DNA from: Pseudomonadota bacterium | GTDB lineage: Bacteria; Campylobacterota; Campylobacteria; Campylobacterales; Sulfurimonadaceae | Assembly: GCA_043797085.1 (NCBI GenBank) | Contig: JAZDQA010000014.1 | Location: 96,001 to 160,000, forward strand | DNA: 64,000 nt | Direction: 5' to 3' | Shown: one piece after another, positions 11,499 to 51,012 of the stretch | How the letters are laid out: each line of letters opens with the position of its first letter | Numbering within the stretch: the stretch's first letter is position 1 | The notes under the pieces: model-generated | What the model was told of the DNA's origin: nothing | Database searches by the model: none | Seen by the model: only the letters and a program-made list of their open reading frames with translations | Translations under genes and position numbers: made by a program

Positions 11499-12356
11499 CT
11501 AGTCTCCTTGCGGAAGGGATTTTTTCATCTGTTCAACAAGATCCGCATCGATTTTATCCACAGTAGGCAATATAATATTAGCCTTAAGATACAAATCTCC
11601 GCGAACACCGCTTTGTCGATTCATCACGCCCATCTCTTTGAGACGGAAACGCTGACCATTTTTGGTATTTTCAGGCACTTTAAGTGTAACTTCTTTATCT
11701 AATGTCTGAACCGCCACTTTACCACCAAACAGTGCCGCATAAAGAGGAACACTAAATGTTTTCACAAGATTGTCTCCCTCGCGCTCATACTCAGGATTGG
11801 CAGAAATATCGATACGTAAATACAAATCACCCGATTGGGCACCATGACGCTTCCCTTTTCCGCGAACACGAAGTTTTTCACCGCTTTTAATTCCGGCAGG
11901 AATTTTGATGTCAAAACTCTCTCCAGAAAGGCTAATCGTGTGTTTACCACCGAGTACCGCTACGGCAAACGGAATAGTAACATTGGCATCAAAATCAAGG
12001 TTCATCGCGCCGCCAAAGCCACTGCCAAATCCGCCGCCGCTAAATCCACCGCCTCCTCCACCGAACATACTGCGTAAAATCTCATCTAAATCGACATTAC
12101 CGCCCTGAGCACGTGAGAAATCATGGAAGTTTTGCCCGCCGAACATCGAATCCCCGTACTGATCGTATTTGGCACGTTTTTCTTTATCGCTAAGCACTTC
12201 ATACGCCGCATTAATCTCTTTAAATTTTTCTTCCGCTGCGGGGTCTTTGTTCACATCGGGATGGTATTGACGCGCGAGCTTACGGTAAGCTTTTTTGATC
12301 TCTGTTTCGCTTGCGCCTGCTGTAACTTCTAAGGTAGTGTATAAACTTTTTGACAT
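11499..12356 (-). CDS. cbpA: DnaJ-class co-chaperone CbpA
   Basis: J domain with HPD, G/F-rich linker, no Zn finger, DnaJ C-terminal domain; start trimmed to MSKSLY. Confidence 0.9.
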
Positions 12357-12395
12357 TTTAAATCCTATTGAAATCATAGTTAATTATTTAACAAA

Positions 12396-12430
12396 ATTAT
12401 AACAGAATAGTTGAGTCAAAGTCAATCAAG
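12396..12430 (-). promoter_or_regulatory. cbpA-hspR promoter (TGnTATAAT) with HAIR-like HspR operator
   Basis: Minus-strand TGTTATAAT at 12396-12404; GTTGAGT-caaagtc-AATCAAG at 12410-12430 matches HAIR consensus CTTGAGT-N7-ACTCAAG at 12/14. Confidence 0.8.
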
Positions 12431-12502
12431 GTTAAAAAGGAAAGTGCGTTGGATTAGAAGAAAGAGAAGATTGAAGATTGCGCCATAAAGACGCAAGTGT
12501 TT

Positions 12503-14038
12503 TTAGTGCAAAAAGTGACGAATACCAGTAAAGTACAACGACATCCCGTGCTCATCTGCCGCCGCGATGACTTCTTCATCACGTACCGAACCGCCCGGTT
12601 GAATAACGGTTTTGACACCCGCCCCTGCTGCCGCGTCGATAGAATCGCGAAACGGGAAAAATGCTTCAGAAGCAAGAGCTGAACCGCTTACATCCAGACC
12701 CATCTCTTCCGCTTTTCGTAATGCACAACGGGCTGCATCGACACGAGACGTCATCCCCATACCCACTGCTACCATCGCGGAGTCTTTTACGTACACAACA
12801 CAGTTTGATTTGGTTAATGAGGCTACTTTATACGCGATTTCAGCGTCTTTAAGTTCACTCTCGCTTGCCGTGTGTTTTGTCACCAACTTGGCATTCTTAA
12901 CCTCATCGTCTCCCACACGATCCGCGTCTTGGAATACAAATCCGCCGTCAATGTGTTTAAAATCGACTGCATCTCGGCTCAGAAGAATACGATCACTGCC
13001 GTATTCAAAAAGCTTTAGACGTTTTTTCGGCTCAAATACTGCTTGTGCTTCTTCATCGATTTTACCTGCAATAATCACTTCCAAAAACATCTCATTCATT
13101 TTCAGGGCAAGTTCTTTGGTCACGACGCCATTGACCGCAACGACGCCTCCAAATGCTGAAATCGGATCACATTTAAGTGCTTCGGTATACGCATCCATCA
13201 TATTATCACGGATTGCAAAACCGCACGGGTTACCGTGCTTTACGATACAGATAGCATTCTCATCCCCAAACGCAGCTGCAATTTTCACCGCACCGCTGAT
13301 GTCGGTAAGATTGTTAAAACTTGCTTCACCTTTGAGGGTTTTGAAGTTTTTAGAGAAGAAAGTGTCAAACTCGTACAAACCACCCTTTTGATGCGGGTTT
13401 TCGCCGTAACGGGTATCCATTACTTTGTTTCCGACGATAAACTGTTTCTCTCCCATGCCGTTGTTAAAACGTTTGTTCATGTAGTTGGCAATCATGCTGT
13501 CGTATGCTGCCGTATGCTCATATGCTTTGATCATCAAATTACGGCGAAATTCAACGCTATCTGAACCGTTTTGAATCGCATTAAGCACCACAGAGTAATC
13601 ACTTGGATCGGTAATGATATGAACATCGATAAAGTTTTTTGCAGCAGAACGAACCATTGCAGGTCCTCCGATGTCGATGTTTTCAATGATCTCTTCGAAG
13701 TCATCCGTACGCTCAATGGTCGCTTTGAACGGATAAAGATTTACACAAACAAGGTCAATTTCAACAATCCCGTATTCCATCGCTGTATTGACATGAGAAT
13801 CCAAATCACGACGAAATAAAATGCCCCCGTGGATATATGGGTTAAGGGTCTTAACCCGACCATCAAACATCTCCGGAAATCCTGTCACATCATCAATCTC
13901 GATAGCATTCACACCTGCATCACGCAACATTTTAAACGTTCCGCCCGTAGAGACGATTTCATAGTCCAAACCGATGAGAGATTTAGCGAATTCTACGATA
14001 TTACTTTTATCACTGACACTGAGTAATGCACGCTTCAT
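12503..14038 (-). CDS. purH: Bifunctional AICAR transformylase/IMP cyclohydrolase
   Basis: [52 protein letters not shown]. Confidence 0.97.
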
Positions 14039-14146
14039 GCAGTTCCTTTGATTGGGTACTTAGACCCATGAATTAATGGTGGAATTGTAACGAATGGTGG
14101 TTTAGGGGAAGGTAAAGAATGAAAGGAAGCGTATTGCTTCCTGTAA

Positions 14147-14743
14147 TTAGGCGAGAAAAGTTTTTTCTGATTGAGTACTTTTAATATCGTTATAAAATAT
14201 TGCAAAACTTACGCTCATATAAGGAATCAGCCAAATAAAACCAATCCCTAAAGTTAAAAGGGCCAATAACACCCATCCAAAAAAACGAAAACTTAGGCAA
14301 AAAAGTTTCCATTTATTACCTTGCATCATTTCCTTACTTTTCTTAATTGCTTCAAGTGCACCCGTAGATTTATTATCTGCAAGAACATAAAAGGTCATTG
14401 CGTATGAATATGCTGCGATTAATCCTGGAATAATCAGAAGTAACATCCATAAAATAATAAAAAGAGTTTGTAGTAACAACGCCGCAAGGGCTGTTCCAAA
14501 TCTACTAAAACCATCAAAAAGATGTCCTATTTTTGTCTCTTCATTTCTCGCAAGAGCCAACATAATGGTGTTTAATCCAAGTGCCATTGCCCCACCAATT
14601 AGTAAAGAAATAATCGCACCCACTACTGGAATGATTTGAATCCCATACACAATAATACCATTTAATAATATTGCACCAATTGCTATCCCCCAATGCCCCT
14701 TGAGTGACTCTCGTGCTTTTGCCATAATATCTTTATTTTCCAT
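14147..14743 (-). CDS. DUF975 family membrane protein
   Basis: ARESLKGHWG, LLLIIPG, YSYAMTFY, SKEMMQGNKWKLF, WLIPY; start trimmed to MENK with GGAG upstream. Confidence 0.85.
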   Translation of the reverse strand: MENKDIMAKARESLKGHWGIAIGAILLNGIIVYGIQIIPVVGAIISLLIGGAMALGLNTIMLALARNEETKIGHLFDGFSRFGTALAALLLQTLFIILWMLLLIIPGLIAAYSYAMTFYVLADNKSTGALEAIKKSKEMMQGNKWKLFCLSFRFFGWVLLALLTLGIGFIWLIPYMSVSFAIFYNDIKSTQSEKTFLA

Positions 14744-14831
14744 ATTCAGCTCCAAATAAAATTTTATTTATTGTATCATAACAATTGAAATTAGTATATA
14801 TTTTATATGATTATTTATAATAGGAAATTAA

Positions 14832-15326
14832 TTGAACAACTATATTCACCCTTTCACGCCCATCCTCAATCATCATACCTGTGTTCTTTTCCTCGGAAGT
14901 TTCCCCAGTATCGCATCATTCGAACAAGCCTTTTATTATGCCCATCCGCGTAACGCTTTTTGGTCGATTATGGAGGAAATATTTGGGGTAACGTTTTATG
15001 ATAATGAAAATAAAATACATTTTTGTATCGAAAAGGGAATCGGGCTATGGGATGTAATCGGTTCGTGCGAGCGGAGTAATTCAAGTGACAGCAATCTAAA
15101 AAATATCATTCCCAATGATTTTAAAAAACTGCTGGCGGACTATCCAAATATCAAAGCTATCGCGTTTACAGGGAAAAAAGCGTTTGATCTGTTCCAAAAA
15201 TATTTCAAAGAGTTAGAAATCGAAACTGTATTACTTCCTTCCACCTCACCCGCCCATGCAGCTATGACACGAAAAGAAAAAACCATTCTTTATAAAGAAT
15301 TTTTAAATCGCTATTTAACTCTCTAA
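14832..15326 (+). CDS. UDG-superfamily DNA glycosylase (family 6 / hypoxanthine-DNA glycosylase-like)
   Basis: LGSFPS, YYAHPRNAFW, GIGLWDV, SSDS, LPSTSPA motifs. Confidence 0.85.
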   Translation: MNNYIHPFTPILNHHTCVLFLGSFPSIASFEQAFYYAHPRNAFWSIMEEIFGVTFYDNENKIHFCIEKGIGLWDVIGSCERSNSSDSNLKNIIPNDFKKLLADYPNIKAIAFTGKKAFDLFQKYFKELEIETVLLPSTSPAHAAMTRKEKTILYKEFLNRYLTL

Positions 15327-16121
15327 TACCTGCTCAAAAATCGTTTTTGCTGTCTTCCAGCGATCTACTTTGGCATTCATCATCACGATAAGGCAATCTT
15401 TTCCGTCTTTTTTCGCACGAGCGATTAAACATGCCCCTGCTTTGTTTGTGAAGCCTGTTTTTACTCCAACAGCATATTGGTAGCGATTCAAAAGACGATT
15501 GTGAGTGTAGGCAGTGAAAAGTTTCAATTTATCTTTATTAAGTGCGTAATAGGTGTGACTGTTGAGTTTGCTGATTGCATTGAAGGTTGAATTTTTAATC
15601 GCATACTCAGTCATTTTTAGCAAATCATTCGGTGAAGAATAATGATCTTTTCCATCGTATCCGCACGGATTACTAAAGTGAGTATGACTCATCCCGATTT
15701 GTCGAGCTTTGCTATTCATCATCGCGATAAAATGCTCTTCATCCCCGCCCACGGTGATGGCTATCGCTTTTGCTGCATCGTTATCGGATTTAATCATTGC
15801 AGCTTTTACCAAATCCGACATCAAAACGACATCACCGTGCTTATACCCAGCTATTGTAGGCTCCACTTTGGTCATTTCTCGCGTAATCGTCACGGCCTGA
15901 TTCATTTTTCCGCTTTGTATCGCTAAGAGTGCTGTCATTACTTTTGTCAGACTTGCCGGACTGGCTCGTTTTTCCCCATCTTTTGAGTATAAAATATGTT
16001 TGGTGTTTAAATCTTTGACAACCAAGGCTCCCACTTTCAGCCCATCCAGTTCATGTTTATCAATAGCCCCAAAAAGTGAGACGCAAAGCGTTAAACTCAA
16101 TCCAAAAATTTTCTTTATCAT
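15315..16121 (-). CDS. D-alanyl-D-alanine carboxypeptidase (peptidase S11)
   Basis: Signal peptide; SxxK (PASLTK), SxN (SDND), KTG (VKTGFT). Confidence 0.92.
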   Translation of the reverse strand: MIKKIFGLSLTLCVSLFGAIDKHELDGLKVGALVVKDLNTKHILYSKDGEKRASPASLTKVMTALLAIQSGKMNQAVTITREMTKVEPTIAGYKHGDVVLMSDLVKAAMIKSDNDAAKAIAITVGGDEEHFIAMMNSKARQIGMSHTHFSNPCGYDGKDHYSSPNDLLKMTEYAIKNSTFNAISKLNSHTYYALNKDKLKLFTAYTHNRLLNRYQYAVGVKTGFTNKAGACLIARAKKDGKDCLIVMMNAKVDRWKTAKTIFEQVLES

Positions 16122-16211
16122 TCCAAAACCTTTTAAATTATCAATCGAGCATCATTAAGCAAATAATAGTCCATCCGCTATAATTCCCTATAAAATTTAG
16201 AAGGAGGATAA

Positions 16212-45553: not shown

Positions 45554-45609
45554 TTCCACATGGTCGGAGCGACCTGACTCGAACAGGCGACCTCTACCAC
45601 CCCAAGGTA
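45554..45609. repeat. att site copy (3' 49 nt of tRNA-Pro plus 7 nt flank)
   Basis: 56-bp perfect direct repeat of 50928-50983 (ttccacatggtcggagcg...ccccaaggta). Confidence 0.95.
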
Positions 45610-45753
45610 AAATTGTAGCCCTAAAACACGGGCTTTTCGAGCTTTAGTCACCCACAATTAGTAGATATTAGGTGATAGAAGGTGACGAATTAGGTGACAC
45701 AAAAAAAATAATTAACGCTTATGCTTTATTCTTTCAACTAAGTCCAATAATCG

Positions 45754-46704
45754 TCAAAGAATACCTATTGAACGTAGCTCAAGTTGTTGTATTTCCAATA
45801 GGTATTCTTTGCTACTATTGAGGATCCTTTTGGTATCTTGCCTAACGGTAAATTCAAACCTAGTCAGGTCATAGTCCAAATCATTCTTAGCCCTTTTGTC
45901 ATAGCAACATATAGTTCTATTGCTATTGGAATCACTTTTTTGGAAATAGACCGAGCGTTTAACATCCCCTTTTGGATAGAGCTTCAACTTATGCCCTTTT
46001 TTTCTTGTTTTATTGACTCTCCATAGATACGGTACGATGAGGTTTTTAATAGCTGTATCAAAATCTATAGACAAATCTACATGAAAGTCATAACCCATCA
46101 ATACAAGCTTATTTTCTTCTCTATCATTCGGTTCGTAATGGTGCAATATACGATTCAACAGTTCAAAGCGCACTGATCCTTTGTCATGGTCAAGCTGTGA
46201 CAGTCCATAAAGTTCTAAGCTGATATAGCTAGATCGTTGATAGTCTAAAATCCAATGCCTCACACCATCAAACTCTATAATCCAAGCACCATTCGTATAC
46301 ACAAAGCGTTCGAACATATCTTTTTTATTTCCGAAGGTTTTATAGAATTCTGCTAATACTTCCTTCTCATGTGAAAATGCCACCCCATCACTTTCTGTAG
46401 TAAATTTCACCTGATGAAGCGTTGCACCAACAGCATCACACATAGCTTTTAAATTCATATGATTGCAACTGTAACACTTTCTAACCTTTGGAAAACCTAT
46501 TCGTAAGGTATCGAAGCCACTAGATAAAATAGTATAATTAAACCTCCACCCACTTTTACTCTTTGTAAGCTGTCCACGAAAAGTTTTTTGTAGTATCTTA
46601 GGCATGATTTTATCAGCCAATCGAATTAATGCAGGGCTTAATTCTTTCAATTTATCATCCTTTTTTGTTTCTAAAGTCACCTGCAAGAGGCTCTCTATGA
46701 GCAT
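45754..46704 (-). CDS. Putative Rep_trans-family rolling-circle initiator/relaxase
   Basis: Ordered motifs GYDFHVD (cf. RxDxAxD), SVYFQ (TxYxG), ICCYDK (catalytic Tyr), TRFEF (RxE). Confidence 0.6.
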   Translation of the reverse strand: MLIESLLQVTLETKKDDKLKELSPALIRLADKIMPKILQKTFRGQLTKSKSGWRFNYTILSSGFDTLRIGFPKVRKCYSCNHMNLKAMCDAVGATLHQVKFTTESDGVAFSHEKEVLAEFYKTFGNKKDMFERFVYTNGAWIIEFDGVRHWILDYQRSSYISLELYGLSQLDHDKGSVRFELLNRILHHYEPNDREENKLVLMGYDFHVDLSIDFDTAIKNLIVPYLWRVNKTRKKGHKLKLYPKGDVKRSVYFQKSDSNSNRTICCYDKRAKNDLDYDLTRFEFTVRQDTKRILNSSKEYLLEIQQLELRSIGIL

Positions 46705-46782
46705 TTCAGCATCGTCAAATATTATATAAGACTTTTGAACGTTCGTGTCTTACAAATACCTTAAAATGCTTTATACAAGGTA

Positions 46783-47340
46783 TTATGCACCATTTGAAGC
46801 AGGTAAGTGTCTATACAGTGTTGGCACAGAGATGCCAAGGCTCTTGGCAACGTCTTTAGGCGGTGTTCCAGCTTCTAATAGCTTTTTAGCAGATTCGATT
46901 TTAGTATCAGTCATTAATCTTTTTCGCCCACCTGTACGCCCAAGGCTTTTAGCAACTTCAAGTCCTGCTCTAGTTCGCTCTACAATTAGCTCTCTTTCCA
47001 TCTGAGCTAAAGCACTCATCACATTAAAAAAGAAACGTCCTGAAACTGTAGAGGTATCAATAGAATCCGTAAGACTCTTAAAATTAATTCCTTGTATGCC
47101 AAAGTCATCAATTAGGTTGATGAGGTCTTTAGTACTTCTTCCTAGCCTATCCAACTTCCAGACTACAAGCGTATCACCTTTACGTAGCATCTCAATGGCT
47201 TTTGTCAATCCCTCTCTGACTGTTCTAGTCCCACTAGCTTTATCTTCAAAGATTCTCTCACAACCTGCATTTGTTAAAGCTTCTAACTGCAACGTAAGGT
47301 TTTGATCTTGGGTAGAAACACGAGCGTAACCAATTAACAT
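46783..47340 (-). CDS. Serine recombinase (resolvase/invertase family)
   Basis: IGYARVSTQDQ, LVVWKLDRLGRS, MERELIVERTRAG, GGR, C-terminal HTH GISVPTLYR. Confidence 0.95.
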   Translation of the reverse strand: MLIGYARVSTQDQNLTLQLEALTNAGCERIFEDKASGTRTVREGLTKAIEMLRKGDTLVVWKLDRLGRSTKDLINLIDDFGIQGINFKSLTDSIDTSTVSGRFFFNVMSALAQMERELIVERTRAGLEVAKSLGRTGGRKRLMTDTKIESAKKLLEAGTPPKDVAKSLGISVPTLYRHLPASNGA

Positions 47341-47354
47341 CTTAGCTCCTTTGT

Positions 47355-47490
47355 ATTCTCAAATCTCATCTTTATTATAGCAATTGATAACTTAATATTG
47401 AGAAAGGTTTATAAGAATAGATAAAGCCCTGTTTTACCTGAATAATTCTTTTGAGAATATCATTCTTACAATCGGTGGTTTATGAGAATA
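47355..47490. promoter_or_regulatory. res-like site upstream of the resolvase
   Basis: Six TTCTCA/TGAGAA-like half sites; 28-bp imperfect inverted repeat attcttac...atgagaat at 47462-47489. Confidence 0.55.
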
Positions 47491-47574
47491 AATAGTCCAC
47501 CGTGTGCCGATATATTAAAGATTTCTTTGGTATTTTTTTGTGGAGGTGGAGGTTATTAGGTTGGAAGGTTATCC

Positions 47575-47595
47575 TTCGGCTTTAGGGTAGCCGAA
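47575..47595 (-). other. Candidate double-strand origin/nick hairpin
   Basis: Minus strand TTCGGCT-ACCCTAA-AGCCGAA, similar to the pT181 nick hairpin CCGGCTACTCT/AATAGCCGG. Confidence 0.6.
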
Positions 47596-47623
47596 AAACT
47601 CCTGTGGAGATTATAAAACTATT

Positions 47624-48259
47624 TTATTTAAGAAGAGACAAAATTTCTCGCTCAAGCTTCCCAGTTGACACACACTCTACTACAGATCCAGTTTGTGGGA
47701 AAGATGCACTAGCAGATGAATTAAATGATATACTAGCGACACTAGTGTTTGAGATACCATTTCCAATAGTTAGAGAAGTAACTTTTTTTGCCACTATATA
47801 ACGGGTATTTGCAGTTACTCGTGTCTGATTTGGAGAAATTTCTTCAAAAATCAAATTCATTCTTCCCTCAAGAGACATATTCCGTTGAATATGGAAAAGT
47901 TGCCCTCCGGTCATCATTTCATAAAACATGTGCTCTTTCGAGGCAGGGAAATCATACGTACGTTCTCCAGCACCATTTTTGACATATGAAGTAAGACGAC
48001 CACAATCTATGTAGCTTTCTGGGTCACCCGTGTAGCTTATATTGATCAATCCAGATGATTTATCAAGATTATTGATAACAAAAAATTGTTTTCCAAGCTC
48101 TGGAACAGCTGAGTTCCAAACTAGTTCACGTGATTTATCAATTATTTTTTGGTTTGATATCCCATTTTGTTTTATTGGAGGCGTATAATCCACCTTTCCT
48201 ACGCATCCTGACAAAAGCAAAGCCCCTAAAATACATAACACTAATGAGTAGACTTTCAT
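47624..48259 (-). CDS. Hypothetical lipoprotein (element cargo)
   Basis: Lipobox LLLSGC, GGAG RBS, internal YIDCG and ECVSTGKLE. Confidence 0.8.
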   Translation of the reverse strand: MKVYSLVLCILGALLLSGCVGKVDYTPPIKQNGISNQKIIDKSRELVWNSAVPELGKQFFVINNLDKSSGLINISYTGDPESYIDCGRLTSYVKNGAGERTYDFPASKEHMFYEMMTGGQLFHIQRNMSLEGRMNLIFEEISPNQTRVTANTRYIVAKKVTSLTIGNGISNTSVASISFNSSASASFPQTGSVVECVSTGKLEREILSLLK

Positions 48260-48267
48260 TGTAACTC

Positions 48268-48855
48268 CTAAAATTTAAATGTCAAACCGACTTGAGTAGA
48301 CATACCGCCACCATTGCCGATGAGATCATTTGTAGAATATCCAGCTATGCCACCATGCCATGAGCATGTCCCTGAGCCTGTACTTTCTGAGGTTGTACCA
48401 TCATTACATACGGTATAAAGCTGATCGTCAGTTAAATCAAAAAAATATTTATAACCCACACCGGCATTTAAAGCAAGCTTATCGGTAAAACTATAAGTAA
48501 GTATCATACCAACTGGAATAGATAACATCGTATTTTTATTTGAATACCACGGCACATCTAACTGACCAACACCAACTCCAAGGTCATAACCAATCCGTAG
48601 GTTTCCTTGATGAACAATATCCCCATTCAATCCAATAGTAACATCGTAGTAATTAATATCATTTTTACTATCACTTTGAACATTTCCCTCGATATAAAAA
48701 CGAGCCACATTGTCCCATGAATACCCAACTGTTCCACCGCTCATTTCAACATCAATAGCTTTGAAATTAACATTTTGAGAGGAATAATCAACATATAATT
48801 CTGAAGCCGATAAATTTAATCCTACTACTAGCAAGAGACTAGGCAAAAATTTCAT
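48268..48855 (-). CDS. Small outer-membrane beta-barrel protein with DUF3761-like Cys loop (element cargo)
   Basis: Signal peptide, amphipathic strands, C-terminal VGLTFKF beta-signal, insert CNDGTTSESTGSGTCSWHGG; start trimmed to MKFL with AGGAGG RBS. Confidence 0.75.
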   Translation of the reverse strand: MKFLPSLLLVVGLNLSASELYVDYSSQNVNFKAIDVEMSGGTVGYSWDNVARFYIEGNVQSDSKNDINYYDVTIGLNGDIVHQGNLRIGYDLGVGVGQLDVPWYSNKNTMLSIPVGMILTYSFTDKLALNAGVGYKYFFDLTDDQLYTVCNDGTTSESTGSGTCSWHGGIAGYSTNDLIGNGGGMSTQVGLTFKF

Positions 48856-48879
48856 ATTCCTCCTTTTTAGTTGCAAATA

Positions 48880-48954
48880 GGTAAATAATACCTTCTGTAA
48901 TTTTATGATAGGGCAATATTCCCTTATTAAAACTTAAAATAGGTAATTCTTACC
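48880..48954. promoter_or_regulatory. Three phased 13-bp palindromic operator-like sites
   Basis: GGTAAATAATACC (48880), GGGCAATATTCCC (48911), GGTAATTCTTACC (48942); each preceded by ATA; exact 31-bp period. Confidence 0.65.
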
Positions 48955-49012
48955 CTGTTGTTTCGTTATAAGATGTTATGTAACTTTCTACCACTTAAAA
49001 AAAGAGGTAGTT

Positions 49013-49192
49013 ATGACTCAACGAGATATGGCGGGTATTTTGGGCATAGATGTTAAGACCCTCAGAAACTGGCGCAAGGATAAGCCTGAGCTTTACAAAA
49101 AAGTTATGCAGGGCTTCCAGTTTGAAGAAGCCGTCAAAGAAGCTAAAGAGCATTATGAGAAGTTGAAGAGGCTTGCAGACAAAGACTTTTAA
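49013..49192 (+). CDS. 59-aa HTH DNA-binding protein (not in ORF track)
   Basis: Manual translation MTQRDMAGILGIDVKTLRNWRKDKPELYKKVMQGFQFEEAVKEAKEHYEKLKRLADKDF; GAGG RBS. Confidence 0.8.
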   Translation: MTQRDMAGILGIDVKTLRNWRKDKPELYKKVMQGFQFEEAVKEAKEHYEKLKRLADKDF

Positions 49193-49428
49193 AACATAGC
49201 CAAATCATCTACCATAATTTACCTTAATCAAACATTAAGCATATTTACGCTATAATGTACCCATCCTACATGATATAGTGTCGTGTTATTGCTAATCAGG
49301 CAATACCCACTTGCAACATAGACTTCTCTCTTGGATAGACTTTGTTCTCTAGAAACAAATATCCAAACATATAAAATTAATAGCAAAACTGTTTTCACGT
49401 GAGGTACTTTATTTTAAAGGACTTCTTA

Positions 49429-49668
49429 ATGTCTAAAACACAACAACGATATGTTCGAACCAATACTGCTGCACACTATTTAGATGTGAGCAAGGACTTT
49501 CTCAAACAGCACATGGGAAATCTATTTTTTGAAGGTATTCATTACTATAAACCTCAAGATTGCCGACTAGTCTTATGGAAACTTGATGCACTTAATGAAT
49601 GGGTCGAAGGCAGATTGTCTCCTCTGTCCCCTGAGAACAATTTAATACTTAATCAATTGATCGCTTAG
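49429..49668 (+). CDS. Excisionase/RDF-like small DNA-binding protein
   Basis: YVRTNTAAHYLDVS, FFEGIHYYKP, LWKLDALNEW winged-HTH pattern directly upstream of the integrase; start trimmed to MSKT (AAGGA RBS). Confidence 0.7.
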   Translation: MSKTQQRYVRTNTAAHYLDVSKDFLKQHMGNLFFEGIHYYKPQDCRLVLWKLDALNEWVEGRLSPLSPENNLILNQLIA

Positions 49669-49736
49669 TTGCTATAATCACAATCTACTAATTGTGGTTG
49701 TGGCTTTTCTCTTATAAATGAAAAGGACATAACATT

Positions 49737-50900
49737 ATGAAAATAAATACTGTAAAAAGTATCGTAGGAAAAAACGGCAAGCTAGTCGTTAGGTTCTTTG
49801 ACAACGCAGGCAAGATCAAGCAAAAGACACTTAATCTAGCCGACACAAAAGCAAATAGAAAAAGCGTTTCACAAACGATTCCAGCATTTGAAAAAACTTT
49901 ACGAGATAAAGCTGAACAAGGTGCTAAATTACCAATTCATTTTGGCTATTACGCTGATAAGTATTTAGAACAACTTACAGCAACTGGTCATACAAAAACG
50001 ATTGCTCATACAGGTCGCATTAAAAAGATGTTAGAACATTTTGGATCACAAACAGATATAAATAACATCACTGAATTAGCTATTGAAGACTTTTTTCAAG
50101 GATTAAGGTGCAAACGTGAGACCAAACTCGATTGGCTTGTAGTCATGAGGGGTGTGTTTGATAAAGCACGTAAGGGAAGAGCTATAGAGAAAAATATTGC
50201 TGAATCGTATAAGTTGCCCTTAGAAGCTTCTATAAATGATGAAAGTGCGGTTGAGCCTTTTGCTCTCGATGAGGTAAAAAGATTACTCTTGCACTCTAAA
50301 GGAATGGTTCTTCACAATTACCTCGGTATTGCATTTCACTTAGGAACGCGTCCTGAAGAAACGATTGCACTAAAGATTGAAGATGTTGACCTTACAAGTG
50401 GAACAGTACAGATAGAGCGAGCCATTACGAAGGGAGTTATTAAGAGCCCTAAGACAAAGGCTTCAAAACGTTCGATACCATTGCCAGATCATGCTAGAGT
50501 ATTCTTTAGTGAACTGATAAAAAAAGCGAAAGAAAAAAGTAGTCTTTACTTGTTCAGTGATGCAAATGGAATACACCTCAATGATATAGAAGATTTGAGA
50601 GGTAAAAAGTATCGAGATGGTGCTTGGTATCAATTGCTAAAAAAAGCAGAAGTAACACCTCGTAAACTAATGCAAACACGTCATACATTTGCGGTAATGG
50701 CAATTCGTTCTCAAGAATACACAATGCAGGAAGTTGCATCTATTCTAGGTCACAGCTCTTTAGCTATGATTATTTCACACTATGGAAAGCATCTTGGAGC
50801 TTCTCACATGAAAGTTGCTAGGTCAGTTAATATTTTTAAAGATCAAGGTGACGTATTGGGTGACGCTGAAATAAAAGTTGAAATCAGAGAAGTTGCTTAG
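49737..50900 (+). CDS. Tyrosine recombinase/integrase
   Basis: GTRPEE (R), KSPKT (K), MQTRHTFA (xxxR), LGHSS (H), HYG (Y); adjacent to att/tRNA. Confidence 0.93.
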   Translation: MKINTVKSIVGKNGKLVVRFFDNAGKIKQKTLNLADTKANRKSVSQTIPAFEKTLRDKAEQGAKLPIHFGYYADKYLEQLTATGHTKTIAHTGRIKKMLEHFGSQTDINNITELAIEDFFQGLRCKRETKLDWLVVMRGVFDKARKGRAIEKNIAESYKLPLEASINDESAVEPFALDEVKRLLLHSKGMVLHNYLGIAFHLGTRPEETIALKIEDVDLTSGTVQIERAITKGVIKSPKTKASKRSIPLPDHARVFFSELIKKAKEKSSLYLFSDANGIHLNDIEDLRGKKYRDGAWYQLLKKAEVTPRKLMQTRHTFAVMAIRSQEYTMQEVASILGHSSLAMIISHYGKHLGASHMKVARSVNIFKDQGDVLGDAEIKVEIREVA

Positions 50901-50927
50901 AAGATAATAAAGCCCTATTTATAGGGT

Positions 50928-50983
50928 TTCCACATGGTCGGAGCGACCTGACTCGAACAGGCGACCTCTACCACCCCAAGGTA
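50928..50983. repeat. att site copy overlapping the intact tRNA-Pro
   Basis: Identical to 45554-45609. Confidence 0.95.
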
Positions 50984-51012
50984 GTGCGCTAGCCAAACTG
51001 CGCTACGCCCCG
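50935..51012 (-). tRNA. tRNA-Pro (anticodon GGG)
   Basis: CGGGGCGTAGCGCAGTTTGGCTAGCGCA-CTACC-TTGGGGT-GGTAG-AGGTCGCCTG-TTCGAGT-CAGGTCGCTCCGACCA; cloverleaf with encoded CCA. Confidence 0.96.

Follow-up and report, generated by a model that had tools for sequence, protein, structure and literature searches.

Small integrated elements that replicate as rolling circles are known mostly from Firmicutes, and their movement without transfer genes is an open question (PMC11389934; this and the other papers are cited here for those of their parts that we drew on). Closest in gene content are the streptococcal integrative and mobilizable elements (IMEs) of Class_IME_1, which pair a tyrosine integrase with a Rep_trans or MobT protein and, in the parts cited, have no coupling protein (PMC5357655, PMC5704250). 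In the initiator RepD, Y191 is the nucleophile, D46, D142, and E214 are metal ligands, R140, R189, K193, and R212 are conserved, and loss of R189 impairs nicking (PMC4797284); Rep_trans and MOBT proteins alike nick at CT'AA in a GC-rich hairpin (PMC9371924). An inovirus can also package a rolling-circle plasmid with little beyond a short signal, as with pDolos (bioRxiv 10.1101/2023.11.28.569023). Here, we examined a 64-kb window (the whole stretch of DNA that was analyzed, from contig JAZDQA010000014.1 of a Sulfurimonadaceae genome), in which a 5374-bp element is probably an integrative rolling-circle plasmid in tRNA-Pro(GGG), likely able to excise and replicate as a circle. It has clear boundaries, an empty counterpart site, a compact gene content, and a modular family of relatives, and its initiator has a predicted Rep_trans fold and active site.

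The element is a genuine insertion in tRNA-Pro(GGG) with its own integrase. Coordinates are positions in the window, and the host genome, G000, is 2.40 Mb and 95.9% complete. The ends and the target are as follows:

45554..45609, no strand: left att core, a 56-bp copy of the 3' part of tRNA-Pro
50928..50983, no strand: right att core, inside the intact tRNA
50935..51012, minus strand: tRNA-Pro(GGG), the integration target

An earlier note on this DNA had described 56-bp direct repeats that duplicate the 3' part of this tRNA, and both the repeats and the target hold: the two 56-nt cores are 100% identical and spaced 5374 bp apart, and tRNA-Pro(GGG) was called at the right-hand core. As the repeat begins at tRNA position 30, it covers the anticodon loop. 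The empty attB site that the note proposed to look for in relatives was found in G002, G012, and G019, which join both flanks across one core (24 same-genus genomes compared). Thus, a repeat that regenerates the tRNA, a terminal integrase gene, and an empty site are all present, as in other tRNA-integrated elements with a tyrosine integrase. The same locus holds different genes, with no integrase match, in G007, G013, G014, and G024, and an unrelated integrase element in G005; in G018 and G022, the tRNA core was unmatched between the flanks. The remaining loci were split across contigs or lay outside the comparison, which covered L022 among L021–L030. The element is single-copy in G000, has a GC content of 36.2% against 40.8% for the genome, and is flanked by a chemotaxis receptor gene and a laccase-domain gene; its interior as a whole had no match in 40 other genomes. 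In G012 (L017), 11 bases at the tRNA 3' end of the empty site are duplicated. The element in G005 (L012:6124-11331), of 5.2 kb and in the same tRNA-Pro, has another integrase, a distant Rep homologue, and a small terminase (PF03592), and is a satellite candidate in its own right.

All seven genes listed in the earlier note are present at their places, together with a hairpin that is a candidate origin:

45754..46704, minus strand: divergent rolling-circle initiator (Rep) with a predicted Rep_trans fold; key residues D65, D206, D210, Y268, K270, R282, and E284
46783..47340, minus strand: serine resolvase/invertase, catalytic domain plus HTH_7 (PF00239, E 8e-46; phrog_125)
47575..47595, minus strand (the rep strand): candidate double-strand origin, a 7-bp GC-rich stem with CTAA in the loop
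47624..48259, minus strand: cargo, 211-aa lipoprotein-like protein of no family (lipobox; unnamed Atlas clusters)
48268..48855, minus strand: cargo, 195-aa outer-membrane beta-barrel-like protein (signal peptide, C-terminal Phe)
49013..49192, plus strand: 59-aa helix-turn-helix (HTH) regulator, divergent from the cargo, with weak HTH matches below the cut-off
49429..49668, plus strand: likely excisionase, 79 aa (TIGR01764, E 0.033, below the cut-off)
49737..50900, plus strand: tyrosine integrase (PF00589, E 7.6e-13)

The integrase holds R205, R315, H339, and Y349 of the catalytic residue pattern of tyrosine integrases, with Met in the usual place of the first His. Homologues of the putative excisionase lie immediately upstream of related integrases in L100 and L102. 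In agreement with the earlier note, no capsid, conjugation, or transposase family was found at the cut-off among the seven proteins, apart from serine-recombinase-domain matches on the resolvase.

We read the Rep as a divergent Rep_trans-fold initiator that would work like RepC and RepD while failing Pfam membership; this identity rests on fold and motifs, because no family matched by sequence. An AlphaFold model based on an alignment of 19 homologues (36–100% identical) reached a predicted local distance difference test score (pLDDT) of 85.8, and its top structural matches among 48,161 chains were RepDE (Z 8.3, root mean square deviation [rmsd] 4.3, 178 residues aligned) and then RepSTK1 (Z 7.0, rmsd 4.7, 198 aligned). 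All six Foldseek matches in the PDB at E<=0.001 were Rep_trans chains, and the Atlas look-alikes of Rep carry Rep_trans or Phage_CRI. The predicted model therefore has the crescent catalytic fold of Rep_trans, which resembles TATA-binding protein (TBP), with RepDE and RepSTK1 leading in both methods at modest scores. A search of viral folds placed two named inovirus proteins in the top 10; as many TBP-like proteins of large DNA viruses had similar scores, it was not counted as support.

Residues of RepD were mapped onto the Rep (numbered by its 316-aa open reading frame [ORF]) by motif order and a non-significant RepC alignment, not by coordinates, which gave Y268, D65, D206, and E284 for Y191, D46, D142, and E214, and G204, C266, K270, R282, and D210 for R140, R189, K193, R212, and D146, respectively. 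Among the 19 rows, D65, D206, D210, Y268, K270, R282, and E284 never vary where the position is covered (18 or 19 rows). A search of 66 genomes in the genus turned up more distant relatives that keep this motif order in 7 other genomes, and a draw of 400 other genomes from the order did so in 13; several of these relatives sit in small integrase-excisionase-rep islands at tRNA or tmRNA genes; the distant homologues L173 and L182–L184 keep the canonical Arg of the RxDxAxD motif. The earlier note had called the 316-aa ORF Rep-like. This stands as far as the predicted fold and motifs go, though no sequence family backs it and the start is probably TTG 46650 (298 aa), which is the start of most homologues, rather than ATG 46704. 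As a separate observation, the islands L102, L106, L108, L112, L114, and L119, two of them in G000, carry an integrase, an xis-like gene, and a 360–470-aa Rep-like gene, often with an SSB-like gene, and have no phage morphogenesis genes; their sites are tRNA genes, plus the RNase P RNA gene for L106 and L108.

Three further att-flanked elements of 4.6–5.5 kb have the HTH and Rep in common with this one:

L052: 4984 bp, 62-bp repeat, part of tRNA-Arg
L053: 4572 bp, 48-bp repeat, tRNA-Arg
L054: 5543 bp, 23-bp repeat

Their common gene order is integrase, HTH, divergent cargo, and Rep. Across the four elements, the HTH is 84–93% identical and Rep 37–81%, while the integrases are of three types only ~20–24% identical to one another. 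The resolvase is present in three of the four, all but L053, where divergence sets in at the first res-like repeat and a remnant of the gene end is left. Cargo differs among the elements, with the same barrel gene in L054. The earlier note had suggested searching related genomes for a shared backbone with variable cargo; such a backbone was found, but in it the integrase is swapped and the excisionase and resolvase are optional. Contigs assembled from other runs extend the family, with near-identical pieces of the element among them. In X1 and X2, contigs run from this same left arm into a rep region that has diverged, and in X1 on into the resolvase; a Rep homologue and an integrase homologue, each with a longest contig of 4748 bp, probably represent one more element. 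In one X2 contig, just 21 bases of other sequence separate the left arm (45716) from the integrase start (49741), which may mark a derivative that has only the integrase. In X3, the left arm (45617–45698) lies on a different tRNA-like core, which suggests that the arm serves another target.

The hairpin at 47575–47595 places CT'AA in a GC-rich stem-loop, as expected of a Rep_trans nick site, and from its sequence the nick would fall between 47584 and 47583. It equals the pT181 record (L151) at 16/18 bases, in a comparison that was picked after the hairpin had been seen. In both strands of the 2.40-Mb G000, it is the sole site within two edits of the pT181 18-mer, with seven at three edits. In a 5570-bp contig of run X7, 50/51 bases around the hairpin are kept while the resolvase is skipped; L052 keeps the stem with a changed loop, and L053 has a stem at the same place with arms that are changed yet paired. 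A hairpin at this place thus outlasts loss of the resolvase (L053 stem, X7 contig). A scan of the genus at <=2 mismatches gave matches in 12/66 genomes: nine in one unrelated coding sequence, one at another unrelated site, G000 itself, and G076, whose hairpin sequence is that of L052 and no separate case. Chance therefore yields loose matches, as most of the 12 are unrelated sites, and the same counts led us to reject a genus-wide repeat. A terminator was not called either, as no T-run follows the hairpin on either strand.

Taken together, these features suggest the following cycle. The integrase, with the likely excisionase, would cut the element out as a 5374-bp circle. Rep would make its nick at the pT181-like hairpin and copy the circle by displacing a single strand with the aid of a host helicase, while the resolvase would split multimers at a res-like site ahead of its gene. 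The HTH protein would bind two palindromes and control both the divergent cargo and itself. Finally, delivery of the element to new cells would fall to a helper, for which a filamentous phage is the likeliest candidate.

Several observations weigh against this reading. By sequence, Rep matched no family in Pfam, PHROG, or NCBIfam and nothing among PDB sequences or in tblastn searches of plasmids and phages; no relatives were found among IMG/VR contigs or phage or plasmid records. The PF02486 profile matched 0/12 members of A1 and nothing on the genome, and a Rep profile aligned with pT181 RepC non-significantly (probability 0.14%, E 0.41). Unrelated folds can score close to the Z of 8.3, and the TM-scores were 0.31–0.42. 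In the active site, the R140 equivalent is Gly in 16/19 rows and Arg in 1/19, the R189 equivalent (C266) is Arg in 0/18 rows, and the equivalents of RepD A144, G180, and E196 also differ. The CTAA loop is lost in L052 and L053, and L054 has no hairpin there. The element has no SSB gene, and neither a single-strand origin nor a packaging signal was identified in it. Finally, among the joints listed for assembled contigs of 5/12 runs (X1, X2, X3, X5, and X7), none linked the right end to the left as in a circle or attP; such contigs cannot reveal a circle because they end within the 56-bp core, and an X2 contig spanning int through the entire core was too weak to use.

As to how the element leaves the cell, phage packaging is the leading candidate because G000 has no VirB4 (PF03135) or coupling protein (PF02534) match, yet holds a filamentous prophage, whose repressor module is related to that of the element, and a tailed prophage-like region. 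Packaging by an inovirus takes the largest single share of the probability, although a tentative one; a conjugative helper is doubtful, and so is the case that the element is no longer mobile or not replicative; tailed-phage transduction and exit as free DNA or in vesicles are each less likely again. The inovirus prophage (L113, G000:C1:157412-168799) appears complete. It lies in tRNA-Leu(GAG) with a 28-bp repeat, and encodes its own integrase, an HUH-type Rep, a secretin, a Zot-family ATPase, and pIII-like, coat-like, SSB-like, and HTH proteins. The element itself is no inovirus prophage: it has no Zot-like ATPase or coat genes, and the Zot matches lie elsewhere in the genome. It does resemble inovirus satellites of the TLC, RS1, and pDolos type in being a predicted rolling-circle replicon without morphogenesis genes in a host with a candidate helper inovirus. 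Two results speak against an inovirus link: the element and inovirus DNA have no significant similarity (best E 0.19), and their Reps belong to different superfamilies. Relatives of L113 occur in G014 and G064. A second Zot-profile match (416 aa; G000:C3 ~12250–16200, L056 and L115) lies beside an integrase and an xis-like gene; this locus adjoins type I restriction genes, no coat genes were seen, and the protein is likely another ATPase.

The repressor module bears on the same link through two sites between the HTH and cargo genes:

48879..48955, no strand: two palindromic operator-like sites (48879–48893 and 48941–48955), to which the HTH protein may bind

The palindromes are at the same positions in L053 and L054; their strict core occurs 49 times in 2.4 Mb. 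The G000 inovirus has an HTH 46% identical to that of the element, and ahead of it lie three palindromes whose core is the same and whose outer bases differ. The link is nevertheless unspecific, a further point against the proposed cycle, because most closer HTH relatives adjoin chromosomal cargo without Rep or phage genes: of 20 HTH-relative neighborhoods, two are inoviruses (41–45% identity), 16 have no Rep match (52–87%), and two had no ORF match. As a mark of inovirus descent, the HTH is thereby weakened. More broadly, the family sits at many chromosomal places (L153–L169) without a Rep match, usually divergent from variable cargo in which genes resembling restriction-modification, defence, or envelope functions were noted by eye, and may be a separate cassette system. 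IMG/VR scans with the integrase and with the hairpin found no match, and that with the HTH found one of 18 residues.

In its fullest form, then, the inovirus reading is of an integrase-encoding filamentous-phage satellite with a new Rep_trans subfamily, which would travel as single-stranded circles in inovirus virions and ferry cargo between tRNA sites. Its origin would be pT181-like and would be nicked even though two Arg regarded as essential are missing; its repressor module would descend from the same source as that of the inovirus; and the HTH would control its envelope or defence cassettes. We hold this, parts included, only tentatively.

There are three rival readings. The first, a doubtful one, is an IME proper, in which Rep is a MobT-like relaxase, the hairpin is oriT, and an incoming conjugative element moves it, so that the anatomy is unchanged and only the exit differs. 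The hairpin fits equally, being of the kind that serves both as a Rep_trans double-strand origin and as a MOBT nic site (PMC9371924), and 21 streptococcal IMEs combine a tyrosine integrase with MobT and, in the part cited, no coupling protein (PMC5357655). However, VirB4 and the coupling protein were not found in G000, Rep has no match to the N-terminal HTH of MOBT relaxases, and the known helpers of MobT are TcpA systems of Firmicutes.

We also consider it unlikely that this is a non-replicating island, whose Rep-fold protein can no longer nick and is left with DNA binding, or that the element is a fixed relic; in that case, the resolvase might be an invertase or passenger. The missing R140 and R189 equivalents, the variable CTAA loop, and a resolvase that is absent from L053 and the X7 contig and has a DNA invertase family as its best PHROG would suit it. 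Against it, the Tyr and three metal ligands never change among proteins that are only 36–88% identical, no ORF is broken, the two repeats match perfectly, and other runs contain near-identical pieces; nor did the DNA next to the resolvase show an invertible segment with matching ends.

Phage-inducible chromosomal islands (PICIs) and their minimalist counterparts (PICMIs) carry a primase-helicase replicon and an AlpA or terminase module, none of which this element has. A tailed-phage satellite or passenger of that type, its Rep merely amplifying the circle, is likewise improbable: a tailed prophage-like region in G000:C11 (~65–103 kb, from ORFs by eye) and the G005 element, with its distant Rep homologue and small terminase (PF03592, E 6e-10), favor it, but the element and L052–L054 have no terminase, capsid, primase, or AlpA at the cut-off, and the small-terminase PHROG matches of the HTH span the generic HTH only. 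The C11 region begins at tRNA-Met and has, by eye, head and contractile-tail-like genes, with no match to PF03237.

The element contains further candidate sites:

45647..45698, no strand: likely integrase arm-type sites of the left arm, hexamers at 45647 (inverted), 45681, and 45693
50847..50864, no strand: likely arm-type sites of the right arm, within the int 3' end
45649..45666, no strand: 18-bp motif, a possible Xis or Int site, with an inverted copy ahead of int at 49683–49700
47345..47490, minus strand: likely res site and promoter, conserved non-coding DNA before the resolvase (alignment with L052 and L054)
49671..49704, plus strand: terminator-like hairpin between xis and int
45755..45811, minus strand: perfect 16-bp inverted repeat over the rep stop codon

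Arm-type sites that flank the cores are the layout of a lambda-like attP. Here, one hexamer occurs five times within 100 bp of the inner edges of the two cores, compared with a genome rate of 0.05 per 200 bp; the integrase may bind these copies, and they count in favor of the integrative-plasmid reading. The 18-bp pair is 17/18 complementary, and as such a pair arises in 10/300 composition-matched random sequences, it points only modestly to feedback on int. The likely res site is placed by its position. The hairpin between xis and int is weak, since four such sites were found versus 3.1 in shuffles, and a promoter scan of the element gave chance-level results. The repeat at the rep stop codon is the most stable hairpin in the element (z -5.2) and is absent from L052–L054; Rep here has one extra residue at that point. 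The barrel-like gene has Pfam barrel matches below the cut-off and a 93% identical copy in L054.

Our literature search, outside which most subscription papers lay, found no account of such elements in Campylobacterota. The replicons are probably under-annotated in the order, because Rep escapes Pfam, PHROGs, and NCBIfam while distant relatives occur at the frequency given above. The element is a compact test case: a single initiator is paired with a single predicted nick site, a res-like site and operator-like sites accompany them, and the same genome holds two candidate helper phages. Should it prove active, Rep_trans chemistry would be seen to work without two Arg that are otherwise conserved, and the element could be turned into a vector for integration or shuttling in a group where genetic tools are scarce.

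Compared with known systems, the element is not a new class. The earlier note did not recognize it as belonging to one, but a tyrosine integrase with a Rep_trans-type protein and no type IV secretion system or coupling protein is the architecture of streptococcal Class_IME_1, as given in the part cited (PMC5357655), and the element is likely the Campylobacterota counterpart of these Rep_trans IMEs. The two are alike in site-specific integration of the tRNA type, small size (5–18 kb), a Rep_trans-type protein, integrase module swaps, and lack of transfer machinery. They differ in that this element has a Gram-negative host, a Rep that misses PF02486, and a serine resolvase cassette, and in that no TcpA was seen in the four members and no conjugative helper was found in G000. 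With the pT181/pC221 plasmids (RepC, RepD, and RepSTK1), it shares the predicted fold, motif order, catalytic Tyr, and metal ligands (PMC4797284, PMC5775427), as well as a nick-site hairpin on the rep strand. Unlike them, it is integrated, its hairpin is ~0.9 kb upstream of rep rather than inside it, its Rep has neither the two active-site Arg nor a long C-terminal DNA-binding domain (as in RepSTK1), and it has no resistance gene. TLC, RS1, and pDolos resemble it as small rolling-circle replicons with a repressor and no morphogenesis genes in a host with an inovirus (PMC6744903, PMC11389934); TLC uses XerCD/dif and pDolos is a free plasmid, whereas this element has its own integrase at a tRNA, and its packaging is hypothetical. 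PICIs and PICMIs are likewise minimal integrase-bearing islands without virion genes (PMC11389934), but in place of a primase and AlpA, this element has a rolling-circle initiator and a resolvase, with no terminase. What is particular here is the combination of a Pfam-invisible Rep subfamily, a pT181-like hairpin in a Gram-negative host, an optional resolvase cassette, and an inovirus-like repressor module.

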